A DNA stretch of 64,000 bases from Deferribacterales bacterium (GCA_050251945.1 JBFWLW010000007.1:1-64000), one strand, 5' to 3'. Positions 46,497 through 61,013 are shown, numbered from the stretch's first letter. The notes: generated from the letters alone by a model not told the origin. Numbers and translations are program-made.

Positions 46497-46598
46497 TACT
46501 GTATAATTATGTAAATTAATTTTATCGTTGACGAACGGAAAAATAATCTCATATTGAAAAGTACACAATTAAAGTCTCTTTATTATTTGAGGTGTGTT

Positions 46599-48413
46599 AT
46601 GCTGAACAACATGAAGCTTTCTCTTAAGCTTACACTCGGATTCGGAATCGTTCTGGCGTTTCTCGTGATTATGGGGGTAATAAGTTATTTCAAGATCACG
46701 GGAATAGCAAACCAATCTAAAAAAATGGATACTATCTCTAATGTGCAGAATGCAATATATGAAGCACGTCTTGCCAGATATATGTATTCAAACACGGATG
46801 ATGCGGTATATGCCGCAAAAACAATTGATAACCTGAAACTCGCCCGCAAACTTATCGAGGACGGGTACAGTGAGTTCCCTGAAATGAAGGATGACGAGAG
46901 TATCCAGAAGATACTTGCTTCTGTGGATATTTATAATTCAGATTTTGAGAGGTTCTCCAAAGCAGAAGAACTGAAAATGCAGCTTCTGGAAGAAATGACA
47001 AATGTAGGTCATGACGCTATGAACGCTGCTACAGCATCCGGAGCGGACAATGTGTATAAACAGCTTCTGCTTATGCGTATTGAAGTTCTGAGGTTTATGA
47101 CCAGCAAAAAACCCACAGCAGGGGAAGTGGAAAAACAGTCTAAAATAGCAAAAACATCTGCAGACTCAATGCCCAAGGTTGCCGAGTTGGTGGATGAATA
47201 CAAAGAGGCTTTCGACAAATGGGCAGCAGCTAACGATGAACAGAGAAACATACAAAATGAAATGGGAAAAGCTGCAACGGAAGCACAGGATATGACAGTC
47301 GTGGTTGTTAACCATGAAAAAGAAGCTATGAACTCAAGTATCACTTTTGCGGTTATCGTGATCGCGGTATTTTCTCTGGCGTCACTTGGTCTCGGACTTT
47401 TGATCTCGGTGCTGATAACCCGTTCGCTTGTCGTTCCCATGGGCAAGGCAATGGATTTCGCCTCTAACCTTTCAAAAGGCGATTTCTCCAAACCCCTCGA
47501 CATCCGTCAGACCGACGAGATAGGTCATCTTGCAACGGCTATGGAGGACATGAGACTGAAACTGAAAGAGATCATAGAGGGTATCATACTTTCGGCAAAC
47601 TCTCTGGCATCCGGCAGTACAGAGCTTGCAAGCACTACTGAGGAACTGGCAAGTACGTTCTCCGAACAGTCACAGCAGGTTTCATCAGTTGCCTCCGCAG
47701 TGGAGGAGATAAGCACCTCTTCGGCACTTGTGATGCAGTCGATACATGAGGTTTCAGACAAGTCGTCCGCTGCAAAAGACCTCACAGCCGAAGGACAGAA
47801 GCATATAGTATCTGCTAACGACGTTATGGGCGACATACGTAAAAACGTTTCAGAACTCAGCACAACCGTTGCCGGACTGGCAAAGTCTTCTGAGGACATA
47901 GGCAGCATCCTGCTTGTTATAAACGACATAGCAGATCAGACAAACCTGCTGGCGCTCAACGCGGCTATCGAAGCGGCAAGAGCTGGCGAGCATGGACGCG
48001 GTTTCGCAGTTGTTGCGGACGAAGTCCGTAAGCTTGCCGAGCGTACTCAACAGTCAACAGAGGAGATTCGTTCGATCATCTCCCTGTTTGTAAAAGAGAC
48101 TGCCAGAACCAACACAGAGATGATAGCGGCAGGTAAAAAGGTTGAAACCGGCGCAGAAAAACTGAACGTGGTTGACCAGATATTTGAAAAGATAGTGGAA
48201 TCAGTTAATGATATATCAACCTCAAGCTCTATGATAACAACCGCTGTTGGTGAACAGGCGCAGGCAATAACCAACATAAACGACAATACGCAGGTAATTT
48301 CAAGCGGTCTGGAGCAGAGTACGGCTGCTATTACACAGGTTTCTCATACTGTTGCGGATCTGCAGAAACAGGCGGATGAGCAGATGGATGGAACCAGAAT
48401 ATTTAAGATATAA
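46599..48413 (+). CDS. Methyl-accepting chemotaxis protein (helical periplasmic sensor)
   Basis: TM-helical domain-TM-HAMP (TDEIGHL); MCP core motif. Confidence 0.95.
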
Positions 48414-48450
48414 TACGGCGCTTATAACGCTTCGCATCCCGGCGTTGTCT

Positions 48451-48540
48451 GTTTCAGGATGAAACACGCTTGCGTGAGTGAAGGGAGGCTTTGCCGACCG
48501 GAGAGTTGGCGAAATTTTTCCAAGGATGGATAAAATTTCG
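48451..48540 (+). repeat. Structured repeat family 3, copy 1
   Basis: Near-identical to the reverse complement of 54788-54878; four hairpins. Confidence 0.85.
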
Positions 48541-48552
48541 GAAATAAATAGG

Positions 48553-48582
48553 AAAGGCGACCAATCGGTCGCCTTTATTTTT
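48553..48582. terminator. Bidirectional intrinsic terminator
   Basis: AAAGGCGACC-AATC-GGTCGCCTTT between convergent genes. Confidence 0.8.
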
Positions 48583-48584
48583 GT

Positions 48585-49310
48585 TTAAAGTACCTGACTT
48601 AAAAAGAGCTTCAATCTGTCGCTCTTCGGGTTGTTGAACACTTCAGCGGGTGTTCCTTCCTCAACCTTGAGTCCGTCGTCCATAAAGATAACTCTGTCCG
48701 CCATTTCGCGGGCAAACCCCATCTCGTGTGTTACGACGACCATTGTCATTCCCTCTTTTGCGAGGGTTTTCATAACATCCAGAACCTCGCCGATCATTTC
48801 GGGGTCAAGAGCCGACGTGGGTTCGTCAAAGAGCATGACCTTCGGACGCATAGCAAGTGCGCGCGCAATGGCAACCCTTTGCTGCTGACCGCCGGAAAGC
48901 TGGCTGGGGTAGCAGTCGCGTTTATCCGACAGACCGACCTTTTTAAGAAGTTCGGCGGCGATTGTTTCTGCCTCGTTTTTTTTCAGCTTTTTAACCTTGA
49001 TAGGCGCAAGGGTGATGTTCTGAAGAACAGTTTTATGCGGGAACAGGTTGAACGCCTGAAACACCATACCCACGTTTTCGCGCAGGTTGTTTATATTCGT
49101 TTTGGGGTGTGTGAGCGACTGACCGTCGATGGCTATTTCGCCCTCCTGCACTTCCTCAAGAAGGTTCAGGGTGCGAAGCATGGTGGACTTACCGGAACCT
49201 GAAGGTCCGATTATAACCAGAACCTCGCTCTTTGTCACGTCCAGAGAAACGCCTTTCAGCGCCTTAACACCGTTGGGATATATCTTGACTACGTTTTCAG
49301 CTTTAATCAT
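48585..49310 (-). CDS. Polar amino acid ABC transporter ATP-binding protein
   Basis: [27 protein letters not shown]. Confidence 0.96.
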
Positions 49311-49322
49311 GTTACCGCCTCC

Positions 49323-50270
49323 TTACCTGTCCTGCGCAGCCATTCTCTTTTCCAGAAGCTGGACAAAGAATGACAGACCGGATGTCAGAATGAGATAGAG
49401 TGCCGCAACTGTAAACCAGACCTCGAAGGGGCTGAAAGTTGAGGCGACGACCTCTCTTCCCGCTTTGGTAAGATCGGTGATGGATATAACGGATACCAGC
49501 GATGAATCTTTGATAAGAGATATAAACTGACCCGCCATGGGTGGAAGCGTCCTTTTGAACGCCTGCGGCAGGATCACCAGTGCCATTGCCTGTGTATAGC
49601 TCATACCAAGGCTTCGTGCCGCTTCCATCTGACCGCGTGAAATGGACTGTATGCCCGCGCGGACTATCTCGGCTATGTATGCCCCCGTGAATACCGACAG
49701 AGCGGCGATACCCGCCGTAACCCTGTCAAGGTTCAGAATGGTTCCGATAAAGAAATAGAATATGAATATCTGCACCAGAAGGGGGGTGCCTCTGATGAGC
49801 TCGATGTAAAGCACGGAAAGTTTCTTAAAGAACGGGTTGCCCGAAACCCTTGCAAGCCCCGTTACGATACCCAAAATTATCGCAAAAATTATAGCGAAGA
49901 AGGAGATGTAAAGTGTAGTAAACAGGCCCACCACGAGCGGGCCTGCTTTTGTTGAACTTGTTTCAGCAAGGGTGCTTCCTTTTGTGACAGTGTCGCCGTT
50001 TTTGACCTTTATACCGTCAAGACCTTCAAAACTGACTGCATCACCTCTTTCTGCGGGAACAATACTGAGTTTTGAACCCTCTATTGTAACGGTTCCGTCA
50101 ACAGGTGCGGCTGTGGTCTGGCTGTCCGTATAGAAAATATACTTCGGAAGCCTCTCCCATCGCCATGTGTAATCAATCTTAACGGATGCGCCGTAAATTC
50201 CGAATCCCAGAAGGAATAGGAAAACGACCAGCAGTCCGTTCCAAATTAGGTTTTTAGTTTTCGATGTCAC
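49323..50270 (-). CDS. Polar amino acid ABC transporter permease
   Basis: RGTPLLVQ, AYIAEIVRAGI..GQMEAARSLG, KDSSL. Confidence 0.95.
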   Translation of the reverse strand: MTSKTKNLIWNGLLVVFLFLLGFGIYGASVKIDYTWRWERLPKYIFYTDSQTTAAPVDGTVTIEGSKLSIVPAERGDAVSFEGLDGIKVKNGDTVTKGSTLAETSSTKAGPLVVGLFTTLYISFFAIIFAIILGIVTGLARVSGNPFFKKLSVLYIELIRGTPLLVQIFIFYFFIGTILNLDRVTAGIAALSVFTGAYIAEIVRAGIQSISRGQMEAARSLGMSYTQAMALVILPQAFKRTLPPMAGQFISLIKDSSLVSVISITDLTKAGREVVASTFSPFEVWFTVAALYLILTSGLSFFVQLLEKRMAAQDR

Positions 50271-50293
50271 TTGAAAGCACTCCTGAATTTTAA

Positions 50294-51163
50294 TTACTGG
50301 ATATCAGCCAGCCAGTCTGTGGAGCCGAACCACTTGTCATAAGCGACCTGATATCTGCCGTCGCCTTTGATCTGAGCAAGGTAGTTGTTCAGGAAGTTAA
50401 CGAAGTCGGGATCACCTTTGCGAACAGCCCAAGCCAGAGGTTCAAAAGTGAAGGGCTGGTCAAGGAAAACGAGTTTATCTTTGTTCTGAGCATAGAAAAT
50501 AGCGTTGTAGGGCAGGTCATAAACGAAAGCGTCAGCTTTGCCGTTCAGAACTTCCATAGCGCCTTCCTGCTCTGTTTCATAAAGCTTGATGTTTGCTTTG
50601 CCCATGTATTTTTTAGATGCATAGTCAGCAGTTACACCGAGCTTTGTTGCGATGTTGTATTTGGGGTCGTCAAGGTCTTTGTAAGACTTAACTTTGCCTT
50701 CAAGGTCCTTTCTGATGAAGATAGTCTGACCGACCACGATGTAGGGGTCGCAGAAGTTAACCTGAAGGTTTCTCTGGGGAGTGATGGTCATTCCTGACAT
50801 GATGATGTCGTATTTGTCGGTGAGCAGAGCGGGGATGATACCGTCCCATGCAGTGTTGACAAGCTCAAGCTTTACGCCCATATCTTCAGCCATCATTTTT
50901 GCGATCTCAACATCGAAACCGACGATGTCGCCGTTTTTGCTTTTCAGCTCGAAGGGCATGTAGCCGGCTTCAAGACCGACCCTGAGAACTTTGTTCTTAA
51001 GGATTTTGTTGAGAGTGGACTTTTCCCAGATTCCTGATGAAGCAGCGCCGTCAGCGGGAGCGGCTGTTGCACCGGACTCTTTTTTTTCGGAACCGCAACC
51101 GGCAAGCAGCAGAGCCAGCGTAAGCACGGCAGCGTAAAACACTGATACGATGAATTTCTTCAT
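50294..51163 (-). CDS. Polar amino acid ABC transporter substrate-binding lipoprotein
   Basis: Lipobox LAGC, YMPFE, GFDVE, WDGIIPAL, GMTITPQR. Confidence 0.95.
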   Translation of the reverse strand: MKKFIVSVFYAAVLTLALLLAGCGSEKKESGATAAPADGAASSGIWEKSTLNKILKNKVLRVGLEAGYMPFELKSKNGDIVGFDVEIAKMMAEDMGVKLELVNTAWDGIIPALLTDKYDIIMSGMTITPQRNLQVNFCDPYIVVGQTIFIRKDLEGKVKSYKDLDDPKYNIATKLGVTADYASKKYMGKANIKLYETEQEGAMEVLNGKADAFVYDLPYNAIFYAQNKDKLVFLDQPFTFEPLAWAVRKGDPDFVNFLNNYLAQIKGDGRYQVAYDKWFGSTDWLADIQ

Positions 51164-51173
51164 ATATGCCTCC

Positions 51174-51332
51174 TTAGCATGATTTTCCTTCTTCAAGCAA
51201 TTCTTTTATGATCATTTTCTTCTTATGTATCGGACAGAGGGGGATCTCCTCTTTCGGGATGTAGACTATCTGGGTATGATCGCAAAGCGGGCATTTGACT
51301 TCAACGGTTGTTACCTTTTCTTTTTCCGCCAT
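51174..51332 (-). CDS. 52-aa zinc-ribbon-like microprotein (absent from ORF track)
   Basis: AAGGAGG RBS; MAEKEKVTTVEVKCPLCDHTQIVYIPKEEIPLCPIHKKKMIIKELLEEGKSC; stop overlaps next RBS (TAAGGAGG). Confidence 0.8.
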   Translation of the reverse strand: MAEKEKVTTVEVKCPLCDHTQIVYIPKEEIPLCPIHKKKMIIKELLEEGKSC

Positions 51333-51425
51333 TACTGCCTCCTTAAATATGCGTCCTAAACTTTAATTATACAAAAAAAACAGTAAAAAAATAAAGTAAA
51401 AATGTCTGTGCCGGGGACAGGTCGG

Positions 51426-52427
51426 TTAAAGCAGCGCCAAAACACCGTCTGCATCCCGTTCTTCCGCCGTATAGGGGCAGACAAATCTGCAGAGGTTTTC
51501 CGTTTCATCCCACACATAAAACACATATTTCTCCGAGAGCTTTTTTATCTGTGTGTCTGAGAGGTGCGCGAAAACCGCGTTGCCTTTTACAGGATATTTT
51601 ATTGATATGCCTCTGTCCGTGAAACCGTCTGCAAGTCTGCTGGCGATAGTGTTTGCGCGGTCTGCGTTTTCGAGCCATATTCCGTCTTTAAGATAGGGGA
51701 TAAACTGTGCGGAGACGTATCGCATCTTGGAAAACAGCTGTCCGTATTGCTTTCGGACATATTTTGCGCTTTCGGCGAGGGCAGGGTTAAGGAATATTAC
51801 CGCTTCGCCCATCATAAGCCCGTTCTTTGTTCCGCCGAAGCTCAATATGTCGGCGCCCGCGCATGCCTGTTTCAGGCTGAGCGACATGCCTGCGGCCGCG
51901 TTGGCTATCCTTGATCCGTCTATATGCAGTATGAGGTTATTTTGTTTTGTGAAATCTGAGAGTTCTTTGAGTTCGTCAGGTGTGTACGCTGTGCCTGTTT
52001 CCGTTGTCTGGCTGATGGAAACTGCTTTCGGCTGGCTCTGGTGTTCAAAGCCGGTGTGTGCCAGACAGGGCTTCAGCATCTCAGGCTTAAGCTTGCCGTC
52101 GGCTGTTTTGATCGGGACAAGCTTGCTAGCTGTGAACCGTTCCACCGCGCCGCATTCGTCGCATGCAATGTGTGCCGTTTCCGCGCATAAAATGGATTGA
52201 TAGGGCAAAAGGACGCTTGCCAGCGAAATGACGTTCGCGCCTGTTCCCGTGAGCACGGGAAAATAAAGCGCCTGTTCGCCGAACTCCTTTCTGAAAAGAG
52301 TTTCGGCTTCCTCCGTCCACCTGTCGCTACCGTACGATTTTGCATATCCAATGCCAGCGTCAGCCACTGCCTGAATGATCCTTGGGTCGGCAGGCGCCGT
52401 GTTGTCGCTTAAGAATAAAATATCCAT
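51426..52427 (-). CDS. Low-specificity L-threonine aldolase family PLP enzyme
   Basis: SDN, TGTGAN, AHIACDECGA, HIDGSR, SFGGTKNG. Confidence 0.9.
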   Translation of the reverse strand: MDILFLSDNTAPADPRIIQAVADAGIGYAKSYGSDRWTEEAETLFRKEFGEQALYFPVLTGTGANVISLASVLLPYQSILCAETAHIACDECGAVERFTASKLVPIKTADGKLKPEMLKPCLAHTGFEHQSQPKAVSISQTTETGTAYTPDELKELSDFTKQNNLILHIDGSRIANAAAGMSLSLKQACAGADILSFGGTKNGLMMGEAVIFLNPALAESAKYVRKQYGQLFSKMRYVSAQFIPYLKDGIWLENADRANTIASRLADGFTDRGISIKYPVKGNAVFAHLSDTQIKKLSEKYVFYVWDETENLCRFVCPYTAEERDADGVLALL

Positions 52428-52613
52428 TTAAAATGCCTTAAGTTTCTTTATAAAAAAATAATGATAGCATTAACCGTTCATCTTCGCAATGTATTAGTTT
52501 GGTTATAAAAAGACCTTATTTGTCAACATCTTGACCTGTATTGTTTTGGCTTTACATCCATATCAAAAACCTTTAAACTAGATTGTTTTGAATGAAAATC
52601 TCGGAGGGTTTTT

Positions 52614-53843
52614 ATGGAAGAAAGCAAACTGAAAACCGGTCTTATCGGTATCCAGATGCTGTTCGTTGCTTTCGGAGCGCTGGTTCTTGTTCCTCTGCTT
52701 ACGGGACTTGATCCTTCGATAGCTCTGTTTACGGCGGGAGCAGGCACGCTTCTGTTTCAGGTTATAACAAAACGGATGGTTCCCGTTTTTCTCGCAAGTT
52801 CTTTCGCGTTCATCGCTCCCATACAGTTCGGTATCAAGCAGTTCGGTGTAGCCGCCACCCTCGGCGGTCTTGCATGTGCCGGTCTTGCATACCTTGTTTT
52901 CAGCGCCATGGTGAAGGTCGGCGGCGTTGAAGCCATCGAAAAATACCTGCCTGCCATTGTAACAGGTCCTGTTATTATGGTAATCGGTCTTAACCTCGCT
53001 CCTGTTGCGGTTAATATGGCGAAGAGTTTCGACGGTTCCGGCAACTATGACGGCAAAGCGATGCTGATTGCAATGATATCTCTGCTTACTGCCATTCTTA
53101 CGGTTGTTTACGGTAAAAAACTTCTCAGCCTGATACCTGTTCTGATGGGTATCATAGTGGGCTACGTTGTTTCGCTTATAATGGGAGTTGTCAGCTTTCA
53201 GCCCATTGCAGATGCCGCATGGCTTGCAAACCCATGGTCTGCGGCACTGGCAAACGGTTCATTCGCTATACCGGTTTTTGACATATCGGCTATCCTCTAT
53301 ATAGTTCCCGTGGCGATAGCACCCGCTATTGAACACGTCGGCGACGTTCTTGCCATTTCAAACGTTGCGGGCAAGAATTACCTGAAAAATCCCGGTCTTC
53401 ACAGGACGCTTCTGGGCGACGGTCTTGCGACCACCTTTGCAAGCCTTCTCGGCGGACCTCCCAACACAACTTATTCCGAAGTTACAGGAGCCGTGGCTCT
53501 CACAAAATCATACAGAGTTGTCTATATGACCATCGCCGCATGCACAGCCATCGTACTTGCTTTTGTGGGCAAGCTCGGTGCAGTGCTTAAGACCATCCCC
53601 GTTCCCGTTATGGGCGGGATCATGATACTGCTGTTCGGCATGATAGCCGCTATCGGTATCGGAACCGTTGTCCGTGAGCGCGTGGATATGTCAAAAGCGC
53701 GCAATCTTATCATCGCCTCCGTTATCCTTGTTGTCGGAATAGGCAACCTGAGCATAACAATGGGCAAGATTACTCTCGGCGGTATCGGTCTTGCGGGCAT
53801 AGTCGGCGTTATCCTTAACTTAATACTTCCCAAGGATAAATGA
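52614..53843 (+). CDS. uraA: Uracil permease (NAT/NCS2 family)
   Basis: [32 protein letters not shown]; adjacent to upp. Confidence 0.93.
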
Positions 53844-54478
53844 TGAACTACCCGAATTTTCAAGTTATCAGTCACCCGCTCATAGAGCATAAACTAACCT
53901 TTATTCGCGACCTGACCACCCCGAAAAAGGGTTTTAAGGAACTGGTGGACGAAGTTGCAATGCTTATGGCGTATGAGATCACAAAGGATTTCCCGCTGGA
54001 AGAAGTTGAGATAGAAACACCTATCTGTAAAACGAAAACCAAGATAGTTTCCGGCAAAAAGGTTGTTCTAGTGCCTATCCTGCGTGCGGGTCTTGGTATG
54101 GTTGACGGTATATTAAAGCTTATCCCGTCCGCCCGTGTGGGGCATATTGGTCTTTACAGAGACCATGAAACGCTTCAGCCTGTTTCGTATTACTTTAAAA
54201 TTCCGCCTCAGAGCGAGGACAGGGATTTCATACTGATCGACCCGATGCTCGCCACGGGAGGCTCTGCAATTGCCGCAGTGGACAAGCTGAAAGAGGTCGG
54301 TGTTAAGAATATCAAGTTTATGTGCCTGATAGCCGCTCCGGAAGGGGTTAAGGCTTTCTGCGATGCGCACCCAGACGTTAAGGTGTTTGCCGCAGGGCTT
54401 GACGAGTGTCTGAACGGGAACGGGTACATAGTGCCCGGGCTTGGAGACGCAGGCGACAGGTTATTTGGAACTAAGTAG
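53840..54478 (+). CDS. upp: Uracil phosphoribosyltransferase
   Basis: [30 protein letters not shown]. Confidence 0.98.
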
Positions 54479-54481
54479 ACA

Positions 54482-54510
54482 GGGCGGGTTAAAAACCCGC
54501 CCATTTGTTT
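54482..54510 (+). terminator. Intrinsic terminator
   Basis: GGGCGGGTT-AAA-AACCCGCCC followed by T-rich tract. Confidence 0.75.
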
Positions 54511-54535
54511 TATTATCGCTTCTAAACTTCTCATT

Positions 54536-54915
54536 TCTTCGTTGAAGTCTAAAAAATATTGCTCATGTACCTTCGTTGCGTACACTGCGCATATTTTTTA
54601 TCCTTCGCCTTGAACTGCTCGTTTATAACCGATAAGTTCAAGACGTTTGCCGTCACTGCGAGGGCGTAGCCCGCAGCAGTCTGATTTCTAAAGCTGACGT
54701 TTTAGTTTGCTTCGTCATTTCATTCCTCGCAAAGACGCAGGGATGTCTCTGCGAGGAGCAGCGCGACGAAGCAGTCTCAATTCACTACGTAATTTCTTCC
54801 ATCCATGGAGAAATTATGCCAACTCTTCGGTCGGCAGAAGCCTTCCTTCGCTCACGCAAGCGTGTTTCATCCTGAAACCAATTTCGTCTCTGCGAGCAGA
54901 GCGAAGCAGTCTCTT
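54536..54915. repeat. Mosaic of palindromic repeats (family 2, four short units, family 3 copy 2)
   Basis: GCTCATGTAC..GTACACTGCGC; short units at ~54651, ~54708 (inverted), ~54746 and ~54885; family 3 at 54788-54878. Confidence 0.8.
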
Positions 54916-54917
54916 TC

Positions 54918-56015
54918 TTACAAGCCTAAAAATCGTCCTTCGCTGTATATCAGTTTTCCGTCCGCGTATGCCTTTCCGTCATGCATGGACTTTATCATAT
55001 CCCAGTGGATGCCTGACTTGTTCTTTCCGCCCGCTTCGGGATAGCTTGCGCCCACAGCCATGTGGATTGTGCGTCCTATCTTCTCGTCGAAAAGAATGTT
55101 CTTTGTCGGCTTGTCGATATTGTCGTTAAGACCGAAGGCGCACTCGCCGATGAACCTTGAGCCTTCGTCTGTTTCCAGAACGCTTTGCAGGAAATCGTTA
55201 CCTTTCTCTGCGGATGCCTCAACAATACGTCCCTTTTCAATTTTCAGCAGAATGCCGCCCGCTTCCACACCCATGTATGATGTGGGCAGGTCGAAATATA
55301 TCTGACCGTTCACGCCGTCTTCAACCGGACTGGTGTATACCTCGCCATCCGGCATGTTGTGGTGTCCGTTACAGTTCAGCCATTTACGCCCTTCAACATT
55401 ATAGGTCAGGTCGGTCTTTTCGCCCACAACGCGCAGTTCCTTTGTTCCGGTAAGAATATTCACTACTTTTTGTTGGAACTCGTCAACTTTGCGCCATGCG
55501 GCAACCGGATCCGCTTCGTTCAGCTTGCATGCGTTGAAAACGAACTCTGTGTATTCATCCAGAGACATTTCGGCATCCTGTGCCATTGCCTGCGAAGGGT
55601 AGGGGCAGAGTGACCAGCGGAATTCGCCATTCTGTTCGCGTTCCATAAGAACGTCGCGTACCTGACGCATTGTCTTGCTGGCGAGAGCTATTTTAGATTT
55701 GTCAGCCCTTGTGAGCTGTTTTGTGTTGCTTGTGCTGTCAATGTACACCTGCGCGGTGATATTGTGTGCGTCCGCCATGACACTGGGCGCTATGAACTCA
55801 AGCTGTTTTGCGCTTGCGTTGCTGTAAAAAGCCGCCTGCTGTTCGGCGATAGCCATACGCAGAATGGGGTGAGCACCCATTTGGAGAGCTTTCACCATCA
55901 GTGCTTTAACAAGCGGTTCTGATACTGTTTCAGCGCGGATAAGAAATATGTCATCCTCTTTCAGATTGAGGGAGTATTCGCATATAAGGTCTGCCATCTT
56001 CTTTTCTAATTGCAT
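54918..56015 (-). CDS. M29 family aminopeptidase (AmpS/PepS-like)
   Basis: NMPDGEVYTSP, GECAFG, LFDEKI, HMAVGASY, SGIHWDM. Confidence 0.93.
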   Translation of the reverse strand: MQLEKKMADLICEYSLNLKEDDIFLIRAETVSEPLVKALMVKALQMGAHPILRMAIAEQQAAFYSNASAKQLEFIAPSVMADAHNITAQVYIDSTSNTKQLTRADKSKIALASKTMRQVRDVLMEREQNGEFRWSLCPYPSQAMAQDAEMSLDEYTEFVFNACKLNEADPVAAWRKVDEFQQKVVNILTGTKELRVVGEKTDLTYNVEGRKWLNCNGHHNMPDGEVYTSPVEDGVNGQIYFDLPTSYMGVEAGGILLKIEKGRIVEASAEKGNDFLQSVLETDEGSRFIGECAFGLNDNIDKPTKNILFDEKIGRTIHMAVGASYPEAGGKNKSGIHWDMIKSMHDGKAYADGKLIYSEGRFLGL

Positions 56016-56111
56016 GATATGCTCCTGTTTTCATTCAATAATGCTATAATAATATGAACTCGTTATTAATCAACAAGTCTTTACAATATAACTAAATCTA
56101 TCAGGTGATAA

Positions 56112-57407
56112 ATGCAGAAGAGAGTTAACAGACTTATTTTATACACACTCGACCCGTTCGGAAGGTTTTTGAAGCTTGAATCATCCAGCAGCATCCTGAT
56201 GATAGGCTCGATGGTTCTGGCACTGATATTTGCGAATTCAGCGCTTTCAGACGGTTATTTCTCATTCTTTCAGCAGAGGCTCGGCGTTACAATGGGGGCT
56301 TTCTCGCTGTATAAACCCCTTATCCTATGGATAAATGACGGTCTGATGGCACTGTTCTTCCTCCTTGTGGGGTTGGAAGTGAAACGGGAGTTCATACACG
56401 GCGAACTTTCCACACCTGCGCAGGCGATTCTGCCTGCTGTGGGAGCCATCGGAGGCGCTGTTGTCCCCGCCGCCATATATGCACTTTTAAACGTAAAGGG
56501 TGTTATGAGCGGGTGGGGCGTTCCCATGGCTACTGACATTGCTTTTGCCATAGGACTTCTGACACTGCTGGGAAGCGGTGTGCCTTCCGGTCTGAAAGTT
56601 TTTCTTGCGTCGCTGGCAGTTGTTGACGACCTACTGGCAGTGCTTGTGATAGCTCTTTTTTATACTGAATCCATCGTCATGTCATATATGATGTGGGGTG
56701 CTGTGGCTGTTGCGGCTCTGTTCGTGCTGAACAGGATGAAGGTTGCGGCTATCACTCCCTATATGGCTGTTGGCGGGATACTCTGGTATTGTCTGCTGAA
56801 AGCGGGAATACACGCCACTGCGGCGGGTGTCATAACGGCAATGTTTGTTCCGTCTGCACCTGCGATACCGCTTAACGTATTCAGCCGCCTGACAAAAGCG
56901 TCAATATCAAAAATTGACAACGACGATAATAAAGAACTTACAAAAGAGAACGAGCATGAACTGAACAGGGTGGTTCATATGGCTACCTATGCCTCAAGTC
57001 CGCTTTCAAGGCTTGAGGAGAGTCTGCACAGCTTCACGGCATATATAATCATGCCTGTGTTTGCGTTCTCGAACATGGGACTGCTGTTTGATGTCGGAAA
57101 TGTCGGTGCAGAGGGTGTTGCTGTGTCTGCAGGTATAGCCGCCGGGCTTGTCATCGGCAAACCGCTCGGCATTGTGGGCAGTGTGGCGCTTCTCATGAAA
57201 TTCGGAAAGGTAGCTTTGCCGGAAGGCGTTAATATGAAACATATAATAGGAGCCGGTATGCTTGCCGGCGTCGGTCTCACCATGTCGATTTTCATTTCCA
57301 CCATGGCGTTTCCCGAAGAGATGCAGAACGTTGCGAAGCTTTCCATTCTGGGTGCTTCCGCCTTGTCTGCCGTTTTTGGATTATTCTACCTGAAAAGGCA
57401 TATATAG
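56112..57407 (+). CDS. nhaA: Na+/H+ antiporter
   Basis: WINDGLMALFF, GLEVKRE, ATDIAFA, AVVDD, GKPLG. Confidence 0.96.
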   Translation: MQKRVNRLILYTLDPFGRFLKLESSSSILMIGSMVLALIFANSALSDGYFSFFQQRLGVTMGAFSLYKPLILWINDGLMALFFLLVGLEVKREFIHGELSTPAQAILPAVGAIGGAVVPAAIYALLNVKGVMSGWGVPMATDIAFAIGLLTLLGSGVPSGLKVFLASLAVVDDLLAVLVIALFYTESIVMSYMMWGAVAVAALFVLNRMKVAAITPYMAVGGILWYCLLKAGIHATAAGVITAMFVPSAPAIPLNVFSRLTKASISKIDNDDNKELTKENEHELNRVVHMATYASSPLSRLEESLHSFTAYIIMPVFAFSNMGLLFDVGNVGAEGVAVSAGIAAGLVIGKPLGIVGSVALLMKFGKVALPEGVNMKHIIGAGMLAGVGLTMSIFISTMAFPEEMQNVAKLSILGASALSAVFGLFYLKRHI

Positions 57408-57638
57408 ATTCCGCGGCGCCGGATGTTCTCCGGCGTCATGTTTTTCAACCCCGTTATTGTCTCATCTACATTGATACACCCTGTCTCACGGTGCAGTCAC
57501 ACAGCTCCGTAAATCATCATTCAAATATGTTTTATCAGTAACTTATCTTTAAAAATCCCTTGGTGTCAATTTTGCTTGCTATTTGTGTCCACAAAAAATG
57601 TCTCAGATCAATATTATTAATTATGCGGAGGCTTTTGA

Positions 57639-59306
57639 ATGTTCAGATCCATTAATGGCAAAATACTGATGCTGGTAACTGTTCCTGTGTTATGCGTGGC
57701 TGCTATCATTCTTATGTCAGTGATAATCGAAATGAATATCAGTGCGTCGGATGAGATTGAAGAGACACGCGAAAATCTTATTCTCGCCAAAAAGAATGAG
57801 CTGAAAAAACTGATCGACGAATACATAACGTCCGTTACTCCGATATTGGATAACAACAGTATGTCCGTTGATGAGCGGAGGCAGATGATTATAAGTATGC
57901 TGGATAAGGTTACGTTTGATAACGTCGGCAGTAAGGACGGATATCTCGTCGGTTATTCATATGAAGGGATCGCGTTGTCGATCAGAACCGCTCCGGATCT
58001 GGTTGGTAAGAACCTTTATGAAAGAGTTAAAAATTCGATTAACGCCGCAAGAAACGGCGGAGGTTATGACGAGTATATGTGGCAGCTGCCCGGAACAAAT
58101 CAGGAAGTTCTTAAGATCAGCTATGCCAGAGGGATTGACAGTTTGGGCATGATGGTCGGAACAGCCGCCAGTACGGAGGATATCAGTAAAGCAGTGGAGA
58201 AAATTGAAGCTTCGACACATCGAAAAATAATGAAAACTGTGGCTCTGGTCTTTTTTATATCATTAGGTGTGATCGTGGTGACGCTTATCATCGCAAAATA
58301 TTTTGCAAAAATGCTCACTGCAGGAATAATCAATGCGTCGGCGACGCTAAAGGAGATATCATCGGGCAGAGGGGATCTCACCAAAAGACTTGACGTTAAA
58401 TCCAATGACGAAGTCGGCAAGCTGGCGGAATATTTCAACAGCTTTATTGACAAGCTTCGGGAAATAATCGCAACATTGCAGCACAGCGCCCATTCAGTCG
58501 CTTCCGGCAGTACGGAACTTGCCGCTGCAACTGAAGAGCTGTCGGCAACAGTGAACGATCAGTCGGCACAGATACTCAGCGTTGCCGGAGCCACTAACCA
58601 GATGAATACAGCGTCAGCCGCTATGACGGATGATCTGGCAGCAAGCAGTAAAATTGCCAATGAAACCTCGGCAACCACCACAGAGGGAAGAAACAAGATT
58701 CAGACTGCAATGGATGAAGTTAACGGTATTAAAACAAGCGTGGATCAGCTCAACGGAACAATACAAAAACTTGTAAACTCGTCTCAGGAGATAAATGAAA
58801 TTCTTGATGTCATAAGCGATATCGCCGATCAGACAAACCTTCTTGCGCTTAATGCCGCTATTGAGGCGGCAAGGGCAGGCGACCACGGAAGAGGATTTGC
58901 GGTTGTGGCAGATGAAGTGCGCAAACTTGCGGAGAGAACGCAGAGTTCAACAGGTGAAATAGGCGGCATCATAAATAACCTCAGGACAGATTCGCTGAAA
59001 GCTTCGAGCGATATGTCGGTTGCAAGGAATCAGGTGGAATCAGGAGTAAATATTATGCTTGAGACCGCCGGTTTTTTTGACAAAATAGTAAGTTCTGTTG
59101 ATGAAATGAAGCAAATGAACGCTTCTATTAAAGCATCCATGTCGAACCAGAAAGACGGGATGCACGAAATAAACGATAAAGCACAAGCTATTTCCACCGG
59201 AGTTGAGCAAAGTTCAAGCGCTCTCCTGGAGATAAGCAGAACGGTTTCGGATCTGGAAAAACAATCGGAAGAACTGCAGGACGTTATAAAACAGTTCAGG
59301 ATATAG
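57639..59306 (+). CDS. Methyl-accepting chemotaxis protein with single Cache domain
   Basis: TM-Cache ([14 protein letters not shown])-TM-HAMP; MCP core motif. Confidence 0.95.
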
Positions 59307-59336
59307 ATGAAAAAAGGCGGGCTGAAAACCCGCCTT

Positions 59337-59456
59337 CAGGTTGTTGACAAACTTGTTAAAAGTTAATGAGATTGCCGCGTCAGCCTGCAGCTTCCTCGCA
59401 ATGACAGCAATCTACATCTTCGCGAGGTGTGCATGCGACGACGCGATCTCACATTT
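59337..59456 (-). mobile_element. MITE-like element copy E, truncated
   Basis: Abuts terminator hairpin 59314-36; CAGGTTGTTGACAAA end; nearly identical to copy D up to CTCACATTT. Confidence 0.85.
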
Positions 59457-59549
59457 CACTTCGTTTCATGAGCCTGCATCGTGCAGGCTTGTTTGCGCAG
59501 TCTACTTCTTGAGGTTATAGAAACCCTTAAGTCCTTTAAACGTAGCCTG
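59448..59549 (-). repeat. 102-bp duplicate of the eno 3' end plus downstream 54 nt
   Basis: Direct repeat of 59625-59726 with 5 mismatches. Confidence 0.95.
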
Positions 59550-59563
59550 CTACATTATAAATG

Positions 59564-59668
59564 CGAAAATTTCCCTTCCTGAGAAATTTTCGTCAACGGC
59601 TTAGGCAGGCAAAGCCCGCCCAGCCTCACATTTCACTTCGTTTCATGAGCCTGCATCGTGCAGGCTTG
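59564..59668 (-). repeat. Structured repeat family 3, divergent copy 3
   Basis: ATGAAAC..GTGAG..GGCTTTGCC..GTTG.CGAAAATTT..AGGA..AAATTTTCG. Confidence 0.6.
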
Positions 59669-59678
59669 TTTGCGCAGT

Positions 59679-61013
<1,335 letters not shown>

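Follow-up and report, generated by a model that had tools for sequence, protein, structure and literature searches.

A four-hairpin GGA-loop module repeated in Deferribacterota genomes: a family maintained by structure and a predicted CsrA decoy or recruiting tag

The 64,000-nt stretch of DNA analysed here (the window; contig C7:1-64000 of a Deferribacterota genome) contains the same short structured element after three genes: an MCP gene, an aminopeptidase gene and eno. This raises the question of what such an element is kept for: whether its GGA-bearing hairpins are sites for CsrA, whether they act on the transcript that carries them, or whether they belong to a repeat that serves its own spread. 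The initial annotation had described a mobile structured RNA module, always sense in 3' regions, that could act as a distributed CsrA sponge or as a stability element. It became apparent that the module family is real, strand-specific and maintained by its structure, which we regard as close to certain. As to its role, the best-supported reading, to which we give a probability of about one half, is that the module loops are CsrA sites and that the module is a predicted CsrA decoy or CsrA-recruiting tag, located mostly in the 3' UTRs of ordinary mRNAs. This reading draws on the loop motif, on a parallel with flagellin leaders and on the phyletic pattern of the module.

The genome (G000) is assembled in 26 contigs (3.07 Mb, 46.6% G+C, 99.97% complete). 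BLAST and nhmmer searches against it gave more than 20 copies besides the three of the window. A covariance model built from eight short copies (R1) found 24 copies in the genome at E < 1e-5, and a second one based on 60 hits from five genera (R2) found 34 copies at 28 loci (E < 1e-5), of which 18 are short (85–107 nt) and 16 are long (131–175 nt). The three positions given in the initial annotation agree with covariance-model hits to within 2–4 bases (Table 1). Run contigs were also compared with the window: X1 spans the whole of copy 1 and copy 2, and X2 contigs span copy 2 and cover copy 1 up to position 48531, in both cases with no differences. DNA runs on 47900–60100 contain many joints, with short sides mostly below 40 letters, of the kind that repeats produce. 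None of the runs recorded as RNA contains the stretch, which counts against the CsrA reading; four runs labelled 'RNA?' consist of contigs that may be DNA, and although they cover the MCP gene they do not qualify as evidence of expression.

Each of the three window copies lies between the stop codon of its host gene and a terminator-like site, in the sense of that gene, so the earlier statement that they follow the sense of the gene just upstream is correct for all three; the identities of the hosts were established with Pfam. Copy 1 starts 36 nt past the MCP stop codon and ends 10 nt ahead of the terminator, and copy 3 starts 13 nt past the eno stop codon. The partial second unit beside copy 3 is composed of the last 47 nt of eno, the stop codon, 13 nt and the P1–P2 part of copy 3. 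In a site scan, no promoter-like site was found between the host gene and any of the three copies. The nearest named relatives of the MCP protein come from a Seleniivibrio sp. MAG (76% identity) and a Deferribacteraceae MAG (78%). The DNA of its signalling domain (window 47916–48050) has several dozen matching places per genome of the genus, in which a very large chemoreceptor gene set is therefore apparent.

Table 1. Location of module copies, host genes, terminator-like sites and related features. Positions without a contig label refer to the window.
Feature	Location	Strand	Remarks
Copy 1, short form	48449..48543	+	95 nt; R1 E 1.2e-22, R2 E 3.0e-14
Copy 2, short form	54784..54880	-	97 nt; R1 E 1.8e-20, R2 E 3.6e-12
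Copy 3, divergent	59560..59666	-	107 nt; R1 E 0.02 (weak), R2 E 2.8e-7 (clear)
Partial second unit beside copy 3	59448..59549	-	102-nt direct duplicate, 95% identical
MCP gene, host of copy 1	46554..48413	+	Pfam MCPsignal 1.1e-45, HAMP
M29 aminopeptidase gene, host of copy 2	54918..56015	-	Pfam Peptidase_M29 7.8e-90
Enolase gene, host of copy 3	59679..60974	-	Pfam Enolase_C 1.5e-138, Enolase_N
Two-way terminator-like hairpin	48553..48576	.	ends the MCP 3' UTR after copy 1
Terminator-like hairpin with T run	59313..59337	-	ends the ~350-nt eno 3' UTR with copy 3
Second dispersed repeat family	54502-54628		~100–125 nt
Third repeat family	54697-54782 and 54881-54915		
Module bracketed by own-flank duplicate	59448-59666		
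Module bracketed by own-flank duplicate	54697-54915		
Flank duplication	C4:67986-68118		41 nt of gene 3' end
Flank duplication	C16:27960-28091		109 nt (51 nt flank, 58 nt module)
Flank duplication	C4:25129-25261		28 nt
Flank duplication	C17:31734-31828		14 nt
Long-form copy beside csrA	G000:C2:189337-189470 (locus L021:1287-1420)		opposite strand to csrA; ends 12 nt from csrA stop codon
C3 array, three 153-nt units and a partial one in front	G000:C3:237428-237864 (locus L108)	-	between divergent genes
Arrays of up to five units	G001 C1:337065-337797		
Flagellin leader hairpin	G000:C4:2897-2935		
Flagellin leader hairpin	G000:near C4:5730		
Flagellin leader hairpin	G000:near C4:28100		
Extra GGA-loop hairpin	G000:C4:122518-122535		
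Extra GGA-loop hairpin	G000:C5:75396-75413		
Extra GGA-loop hairpin	G000:C17:36836-36853		
Extra GGA-loop hairpin	G000:C17:36973-36990		
Extra GGA-loop hairpin	G000:C16:21477-21500		
Extra GGA-loop hairpin	G000:C1:183024-183045		

The fold of this 95–135-nt module, derived from the consensus and from single folds, consists of four hairpins (P1–P4) with no enclosing stem. It was evaluated on an alignment of 55 distinct copies from five genera, which was fitted to R1 and thus favours the helices of that model. In this alignment, standard pairs occupy 84.0% of the cells (59.1% in shuffles), and the covariation score is 0.626 (0.184 shuffled), a value reached by none of 500 shuffles. In a control in which the 3' partner was slid by 1–3 columns, 34–51% of the cells were paired. 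The fraction of paired cells is 95.7% in P1, which has a GGA loop, 95.0% in the inner and 90.9% in the middle part of P3, and 96.3–96.5% in P4, a stem of 10–12 bp that also ends in a GGA loop; all of these helices have two-sided changes at every pair. Two outer P3 pairs, which are located in conserved 'GAGCG' words and are absent from R1, are paired in 96.3% of the cells, with 9 double changes. The structured element of the initial annotation, with a long stem that varies in sequence but stays paired, is therefore borne out by covariation, the stem in question being P4.

The remaining parts of the fold are less uniform. All hairpins listed in the initial annotation are found in the sequence, but CACGC-TT-GCGTG (P2) is the weakest of them, since only its CGC/GCG part is general (~85% of cells paired) and it hardly covaries. 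P2 is either a 3-bp mini-hairpin or an insert of ~38 nt that repeats the P3 module; as read from the sequences, the long form arises when a second middle module replaces the mini-hairpin. P3 is a long irregular stem of ~35 nt with G/A-rich internal loops, one side of which reads GGA. In genus g1 these loops are purine-rich, with GAA opposite GGA and tandem G-A, and the same positions form ordinary pairs in other genera or copies. The copies of genus g3 in the alignment are 97–99 nt long and are composed of P1, a 15-nt middle hairpin with full covariation and P4, with loops of the CsrA type. In the window, P1 reads GUUUC-AGGAU-GAAAC and P3 reads GG-GA-GGC/GCC-GA-CC. The P1 loop with its closing pair is CAGGAUG in copies 1 and 2 and CACGAUG in copy 3, which has thus lost the GGA, and the long P4 stem is capped by CAAGGAUG in copy 1, CAUGGAUG in copy 2 and CAGGAAG in copy 3. 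Single-sequence folding gave z-scores of -2.3, -2.0 and -5.75 for copies 1, 2 and 3, respectively (MFE of copy 3, -48.5 kcal/mol).

Three other readings of the same sequence were rejected. An alternative hairpin, GCCGAC/GUUGGC, is preferred by MFE in copies 1 and 2, but family-wide it is paired in 65.6% of cells against 60.1% in shuffles and its covariation is weak. A long-range pairing proposed by RNAalifold from eight sequences was displaced by the extended P3, which is supported on 55 sequences. The ATG in the P1 loop opens frames of 3–41 codons which differ in length and frame between copies, and the element is for this reason not coding.

The alignment also identifies the strand on which the fold is formed. 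It contains 63 G-U or U-G pairs against 11 A-C or C-A combinations, an excess which indicates that the written strand is the folded one. A copy contains 4.1 GGA trinucleotides on the written (sense) strand, compared with 0.8 on the antisense strand. Both asymmetries point to a constraint that acts on the written strand in single-stranded form, for which RNA is the simplest candidate.

The display of GGA in hairpin loops, noted earlier for the window, is a property of both terminal loops throughout the family. Of the 55 copies, 52 have GGA in the P4 loop and 47 have it in the P1 loop, and some of the eight GGA-less P1 loops belong to long forms in which P1 was misplaced by the model. With the closing pair included, the general form of both loops is C-A-N-GGA-N-G. 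The most frequent P4 loops are CAUGGAUG (14 copies), CAAGGAUG (7) and CAUGGACG (6), with the others alike, and the most frequent P1 loops are CAGGAUG (15), CAUGGAUG (8) and CAGGAAG (6). By a hand tally, the exact form A-Y-GGA-Y is found in ~26 of 55 P4 loops and ~13 of 55 P1 loops, the rest being AAGGAU, AGGAU, AUGGAA and similar sequences. These loops are conserved across the genera of two families, while the stems drift and compensate. The SELEX consensus for CsrA is given in PMC7652899, in the section concerned, as RUACARGGAUGU, in which pairing of the flanking bases closes a six-base loop that contains the GGA. The loop form of the module fits this consensus with its hexaloop GGA.

Several properties of the module count against the assignment of its loops to CsrA. 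According to the same section, SELEX ligands of CsrA mostly have no more than 4 pairs in the stem (PMC7652899), compared with the 10–12 bp of P4. The distance between the GGA motifs of P1 and P4 is ~68 nt in the short form, just past the 10–63 nt given there as the bridging range of CsrA in E. coli (PMC7652899); the GGA of P3 lies ~23 nt upstream of the P4 loop. The loss of the P1 GGA in copy 3 also has to be placed on this side.

GGA-loop hairpins are found in the genome outside the module as well. Intergenic hairpins of the type AGGCAC-AUGGAU-GUGCCU occur outside the R2 hits (extra hairpins in Table 1) and may belong to diverged relatives of the module or to different GGA-loop repeats. Among hairpins of the form C-ANGGAN-G with at least five pairs, 28 of 70 are located in intergenic DNA, which makes up ~8% of the genome on a crude ORF map.

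The gene for the presumed ligand, whose presence the initial annotation had left to be confirmed, is found in the genome as a single csrA of 76 codons, immediately preceded by fliW and a flagellar hook-associated gene. Deferribacteres are listed, in the passage of PMC4682653 that treats them, among the phyla thought to control CsrA through FliW and not through sRNAs, and the presence of FliW is described as anti-correlated with sRNAs driven by BarA-UvrY (relevant passages of PMC4682653 and PMC7652899). The leaders of all three flagellin genes of the genome contain a C-ACGGAN-G hairpin ~25 nt ahead of the GGAGG ribosome site. Across the phylum, 24 of 26 flagellin leaders in seven families have a C-A-N-GGA-N-G hairpin 31–66 nt before the ATG (loci L132–L160, a count that omits the three contig-end loci L145, L146 and L151), and many also have a small AUCAAGGAGGAU hairpin that holds the ribosome site. 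Both hairpins are missing from the flagellin leaders of two genomes of family f6, G020 and G027, and csrA was not found in either of these genomes when they were searched (96% and 64% complete, respectively). The leader hairpin thus goes with csrA. Since the module loops match this hairpin, they are predicted to bind CsrA, and the occurrence of the same hairpin before flagellin genes only in csrA-bearing lineages lends independent support to the CsrA link.

The phyletic distribution of the module is in line with this link. At E values up to 1e-4, the module was detected with R2 in 30 of 68 Deferribacterota genomes: in family f1, in the genome analysed here and all 15 others (four genera), and in family f7, in 13 of 13 genomes of genus g13 and one of two of genus g18. 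No match was obtained with R2 at this threshold in the other 38 genomes. At most 62 candidates were scored per genome, so the copy counts, which range up to at least 54, are lower bounds. A csrA gene is present in 60 of the 68 genomes, including all 30 that contain the module, and the module was found in none of the eight genomes without a csrA match. Conversely, 30 of the 60 csrA-bearing genomes are without the module, which indicates that CsrA does not need it.

Some copies are located next to csrA itself. The long-form copy beside csrA lies on the opposite strand (Table 1), so that read-through from csrA would produce the antisense of the module. In G004, two copies are convergent with csrA in the same layout, and in G007, from another genus, a copy follows csrA by ~170 nt on the same strand; no copies were found at the other 27 of 30 csrA loci. 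A synteny rule for the csrA-adjacent copy was consequently dropped, as only 3 of 30 loci have one. By a rough estimate, a given intergenic region would contain a copy ~2–3% of the time, so the copies beside csrA exceed expectation; this excess comes from two independent events, and it is suggestive and does not amount to a rule.

Comparison of orthologous sites indicates that copies are gained and lost between congeners. Five of six congeners (G002–G006) lack a counterpart of copy 1 at the orthologous place. Homology to the window stops at position 48449; it is regained at 48547 in G002 and ~20 nt further on in G004, G005 and G006, with the gap filled by other sequence. In G001, a copy is found after the orthologue of the convergent neighbour gene of copy 1, in the sense of that gene. 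MCP orthologues in two further species are without a copy, and a contig of a closely related strain (run X3) agrees with the window through the end of the MCP gene, departs from it exactly at 48449, which is the 5' edge of copy 1, and continues in sequence unrelated to the window. Copy 2 has an orthologue in G004 that is ~84% alike, with ~16 differing positions and compensatory changes in P4, and was not found in the loci of G002, G003, G005 and G006. A motif of ~33 nt that is present once at the G005 site is found on both sides of copy 2 in G000.

The upstream flank of a module is often directly duplicated around it over 14–109 nt (Table 1), at times together with the 5' half of the module, and at times including the last 41–47 nt of the upstream gene with its stop codon. 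Duplicates of such variable length are not what a target-site duplication of fixed size would leave, nor do they correspond to a simple tandem repeat. Tandem arrays of two to three near-identical units are present on contigs C10, C4, C8, C3 and C5, and arrays of up to five units in G001. Dispersed copies are at most 88% alike, with the fold still kept, which argues against a recent burst. The word 'mobile' in the initial annotation thus receives only indirect support, from presence and absence at orthologous sites, and is qualified by the divergence of dispersed copies and by the lack of a Y1 transposase or reverse transcriptase whose distribution tracks the module.

Two other repeat families were seen in the window (Table 1). 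In all seven genomes of the genus, dozens of places match the second dispersed family, and one of its copies fills the place of copy 1 in G002 and G006. The third family, with the motif AGACUGC...CGCAGAGAC, has many copies genome-wide, contains a 12-bp palindrome (CCUCGCAGAGAC, loop, GUCUUUGCGAGG) and lies to either side of copy 2; several other module copies have the AGACUG word of this family, or its reverse complement, next to them.

The alternative that survives best, which we nevertheless judge unlikely, is a selfish or neutral structured repeat of the REP, BOX or MITE kind, in which the GGA loops would serve the spread of the repeat or another protein instead of CsrA. In that case the element would either depend on its hairpins to spread, or the hairpins would be tolerated, as an insertion behind a gene does no harm. 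The differences between congeners, the break of homology at the edge of copy 1, the near-identical units in arrays, the flank duplications, the association with two other repeat families and the heterogeneous host genes are all as expected for such a repeat, and the turnover of copies in repeat-crowded intergenic spots is selfish-like and counts against the CsrA explanation. However, no enzyme could be linked to this spread. The RAYT/Y1 transposase (PF01797) was found in five of the 15 other f1 genomes, but neither in G000 nor in any of the five genomes of genera g2 and g3, despite at least 42–54 copies of the module in each of the latter. Reverse transcriptase was found neither in G000 nor in any of the 13 g13 genomes. 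With no phyletic link to the module, a RAYT/IS200 transposase and a reverse transcriptase were both rejected as mobilisers. Terminal inverted repeats are lacking at the ends of the copies compared, and the dispersed copies show the divergence described above. The retention of the loop sequence across two families with drifting, compensated stems and the G-U asymmetry, which points to a constraint on a single strand and most simply on RNA, also speak against a repeat of this kind.

The position of the copies relative to genes was analysed on a crude ORF map (longest ORFs, selected greedily). Of the 28 loci in the genome, 12 lie in the same sense and 3 in antisense between co-directional genes; 9 occupy convergent and 2 divergent regions, and 2 are at contig ends. 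The module is therefore sense to and downstream of a gene at 21 of the 26 loci that could be classified, whereas intergenic lengths would predict 46.5% (p 5e-4); same-sense against antisense loci alone give 12:3 (p 0.035), and convergent against divergent loci 9:2 (p 0.011). In relatives, the upstream gene is on the same strand for 24 of 36 hits, on the other strand for 9 and uncalled for 3. The orientation bias is thus real but not absolute, and 'always sense in 3' regions', which holds for the three copies of the window, becomes a strong tendency with five exceptions genome-wide. Among the listed upstream genes, 9 of 22 end within 40 nt of the module. Several modules begin on the stop codon itself, and a few end 2–19 nt ahead of the next ORF. 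By Pfam, the host genes are functionally unrelated (nadC, rsmH, queA, sucD, guaB, rho, moaC, eno, MCP and others). This heterogeneity and the 5 of 26 loci outside the sense 3' position count against the CsrA-module explanation.

The location between stop codon and terminator, the short distance to many upstream genes, the stable folds (z-scores of -2.0 to -5.8) and the orientation bias are also what would be expected of a cis-acting 3'-UTR element independent of CsrA, namely a stack of stable hairpins that would impede 3'-to-5' exonucleases, or define where processing occurs, and in this way tune the mRNA level of the upstream gene. In enterobacteria, REP elements act in this manner. Such a function needs the stems and not the loops, yet in the module the loops are the most conserved part and match the motif of a specific protein, and the copies that lie just before the start of the next gene or between divergent genes would be misplaced for it. 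We consider this explanation improbable.

The array on contig C3 is a candidate for a stand-alone RNA of ~500 nt with multiple GGA motifs, as judged from its sequence: it is directly followed by a terminator-like hairpin, and every unit has GGA in its P1 and P4 loops. No promoter-like site was found before it in the scan. This array and those of up to five units in G001 speak for the reading that the modules in general are genes for trans-acting sRNAs, either CsrB-like sponges with promoters of their own or base-pairing sRNAs, with the 3'-UTR position incidental. The reading is nevertheless highly improbable, because no promoter-like site was found before the three window copies or the C3 array, the flanks compared share no upstream sequence and many copies begin 0–40 nt past a stop codon.

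If the module is a CsrA decoy or recruiting tag, the host mRNA would carry it into RNA, and two GGA sites within a module, either P4 and the GGA of P3 or P1 and P4, would be bridged by one CsrA dimer. The 30–60 modules per genome, some of them in arrays of 2–5, may jointly titrate CsrA from flagellin and other targets, acting alongside the protein antagonist FliW. In a side reading, bound CsrA could affect the stability of the host transcript. A broader version can be put forward only tentatively, in which the Csr system has two layers: FliW, and a 'distributed sponge' in the 3' UTRs of housekeeping genes (eno, sucD, guaB, rho and others). In this version, free CsrA, and hence flagellin synthesis, would track how strongly central genes are transcribed in bulk, a feedback loop would be closed by the copies beside csrA, and modules would spread without a transposase by duplicating their flank, including the 3' ends of genes.

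The relevant sections of PMC4682653 and PMC7652899 present RNA antagonists of CsrA as established essentially only in Gammaproteobacteria. A covariation-backed family with two operators of the flagellin-leader type, present in dozens of copies per genome, would make the assumption of control through FliW directly testable. If the module binds CsrA, a concrete function would be provided for the 'GGA-loop repeats' (TwoAYGGAY and similar elements) known since 2010. The flagellin-leader result in addition gives a clean definition, within the phylum, of the presumed CsrA site, a hairpin that accompanies csrA and is missing where csrA is missing. Should CsrA not bind, the module would still be a well-defined example of a repeat that selection on RNA-type structure has preserved, and for which no mobility enzyme can be recognised.

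The Rfam search left open by the initial annotation matched no family: Rfam 15 gave no hit to the whole window at the gathering threshold, and at E values up to 10, window 48380–48620 and 15 copy-holding loci gave only chance or terminator-driven hits. TwoAYGGAY (RF01731) was absent from these regions even at E values up to 10. The CsrC model scored 9.5 and 7.2 bits (threshold 61) on the terminator and not on the module, with no match to clan CL00106 elsewhere. A plain DNA pattern for a collection-wide scan was rejected, because any pattern relaxed far enough to cover most copies was estimated to yield hundreds to thousands of chance matches.

TwoAYGGAY is nevertheless the closest described kind, and we file the module as a variant of it and not as a member. 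TwoAYGGAY was listed by Weinberg et al. 2010 (PMC2864571, entry for this motif). It is described in the part of bioRxiv 10.64898/2026.09.22.753630 that concerns it as a pair of AYGGAY-loop hairpins sharing a basal stem, which in Pseudomonas is multi-copy and found in association with REP elements, and tandem G-A pairs in its stem are noted in a passage of Gardner and Eldai 2015 (PMC4333381). It was predicted from its motif to bind CsrA (corresponding passages of PMC2864571, PMC4333381 and bioRxiv 10.64898/2026.09.22.753630). As far as these descriptions extend, both elements have two hairpins with A-Y/N-GGA-Y/N loops, tandem G-A in a stem (P3 of genus g1 in the module) and many copies per genome, in doublets or arrays and beside REP-like repeats. 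In the module, however, the GGA hairpins are parted by P2 and P3 with no common basal stem, the loops are looser (A-N-GGA-N or A-GGA-N), and the host phylum is Deferribacterota, with FliW.

The sRNAs of clan CL00106 (CsrB and CsrC; RsmX, RsmY and RsmZ) resemble the module in presenting several GGA hairpin loops per RNA, of which tandem arrays of the module would give 6–10, and in the proposed job of CsrA titration. Those sRNAs are dedicated genes, in the sources' account gammaproteobacterial, whereas the module consists of dozens of dispersed copies, mostly in mRNAs after a stop codon, in an organism that has FliW. The window copies differ from a stand-alone Csr/Rsm gene in lying between stop codon and terminator with no promoter-like site. 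REP/BIME elements and MITEs are, like the module, short, structured, intergenic, multi-copy, enriched in convergent regions and variable between relatives. In contrast to REP/BIME elements with a RAYT, the module occurs in a genome in which no RAYT was found and has four hairpins with conserved loops instead of one palindrome; in contrast to MITEs, it has no terminal inverted repeats, its flank duplications are not of fixed length, and copies outside arrays are at most 88% identical. Finally, CsrA operators are known from the flagellin leaders of B. subtilis hag and C. jejuni flaA (as outlined in parts of PMC7652899 and PMC4894983), and these share with the module the C-G closing pair and the A-N-GGA-N loop. 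The hag and flaA operators precede a ribosome-binding site, whereas the module follows stop codons and is composed of two such hairpins together with a conserved middle stem.
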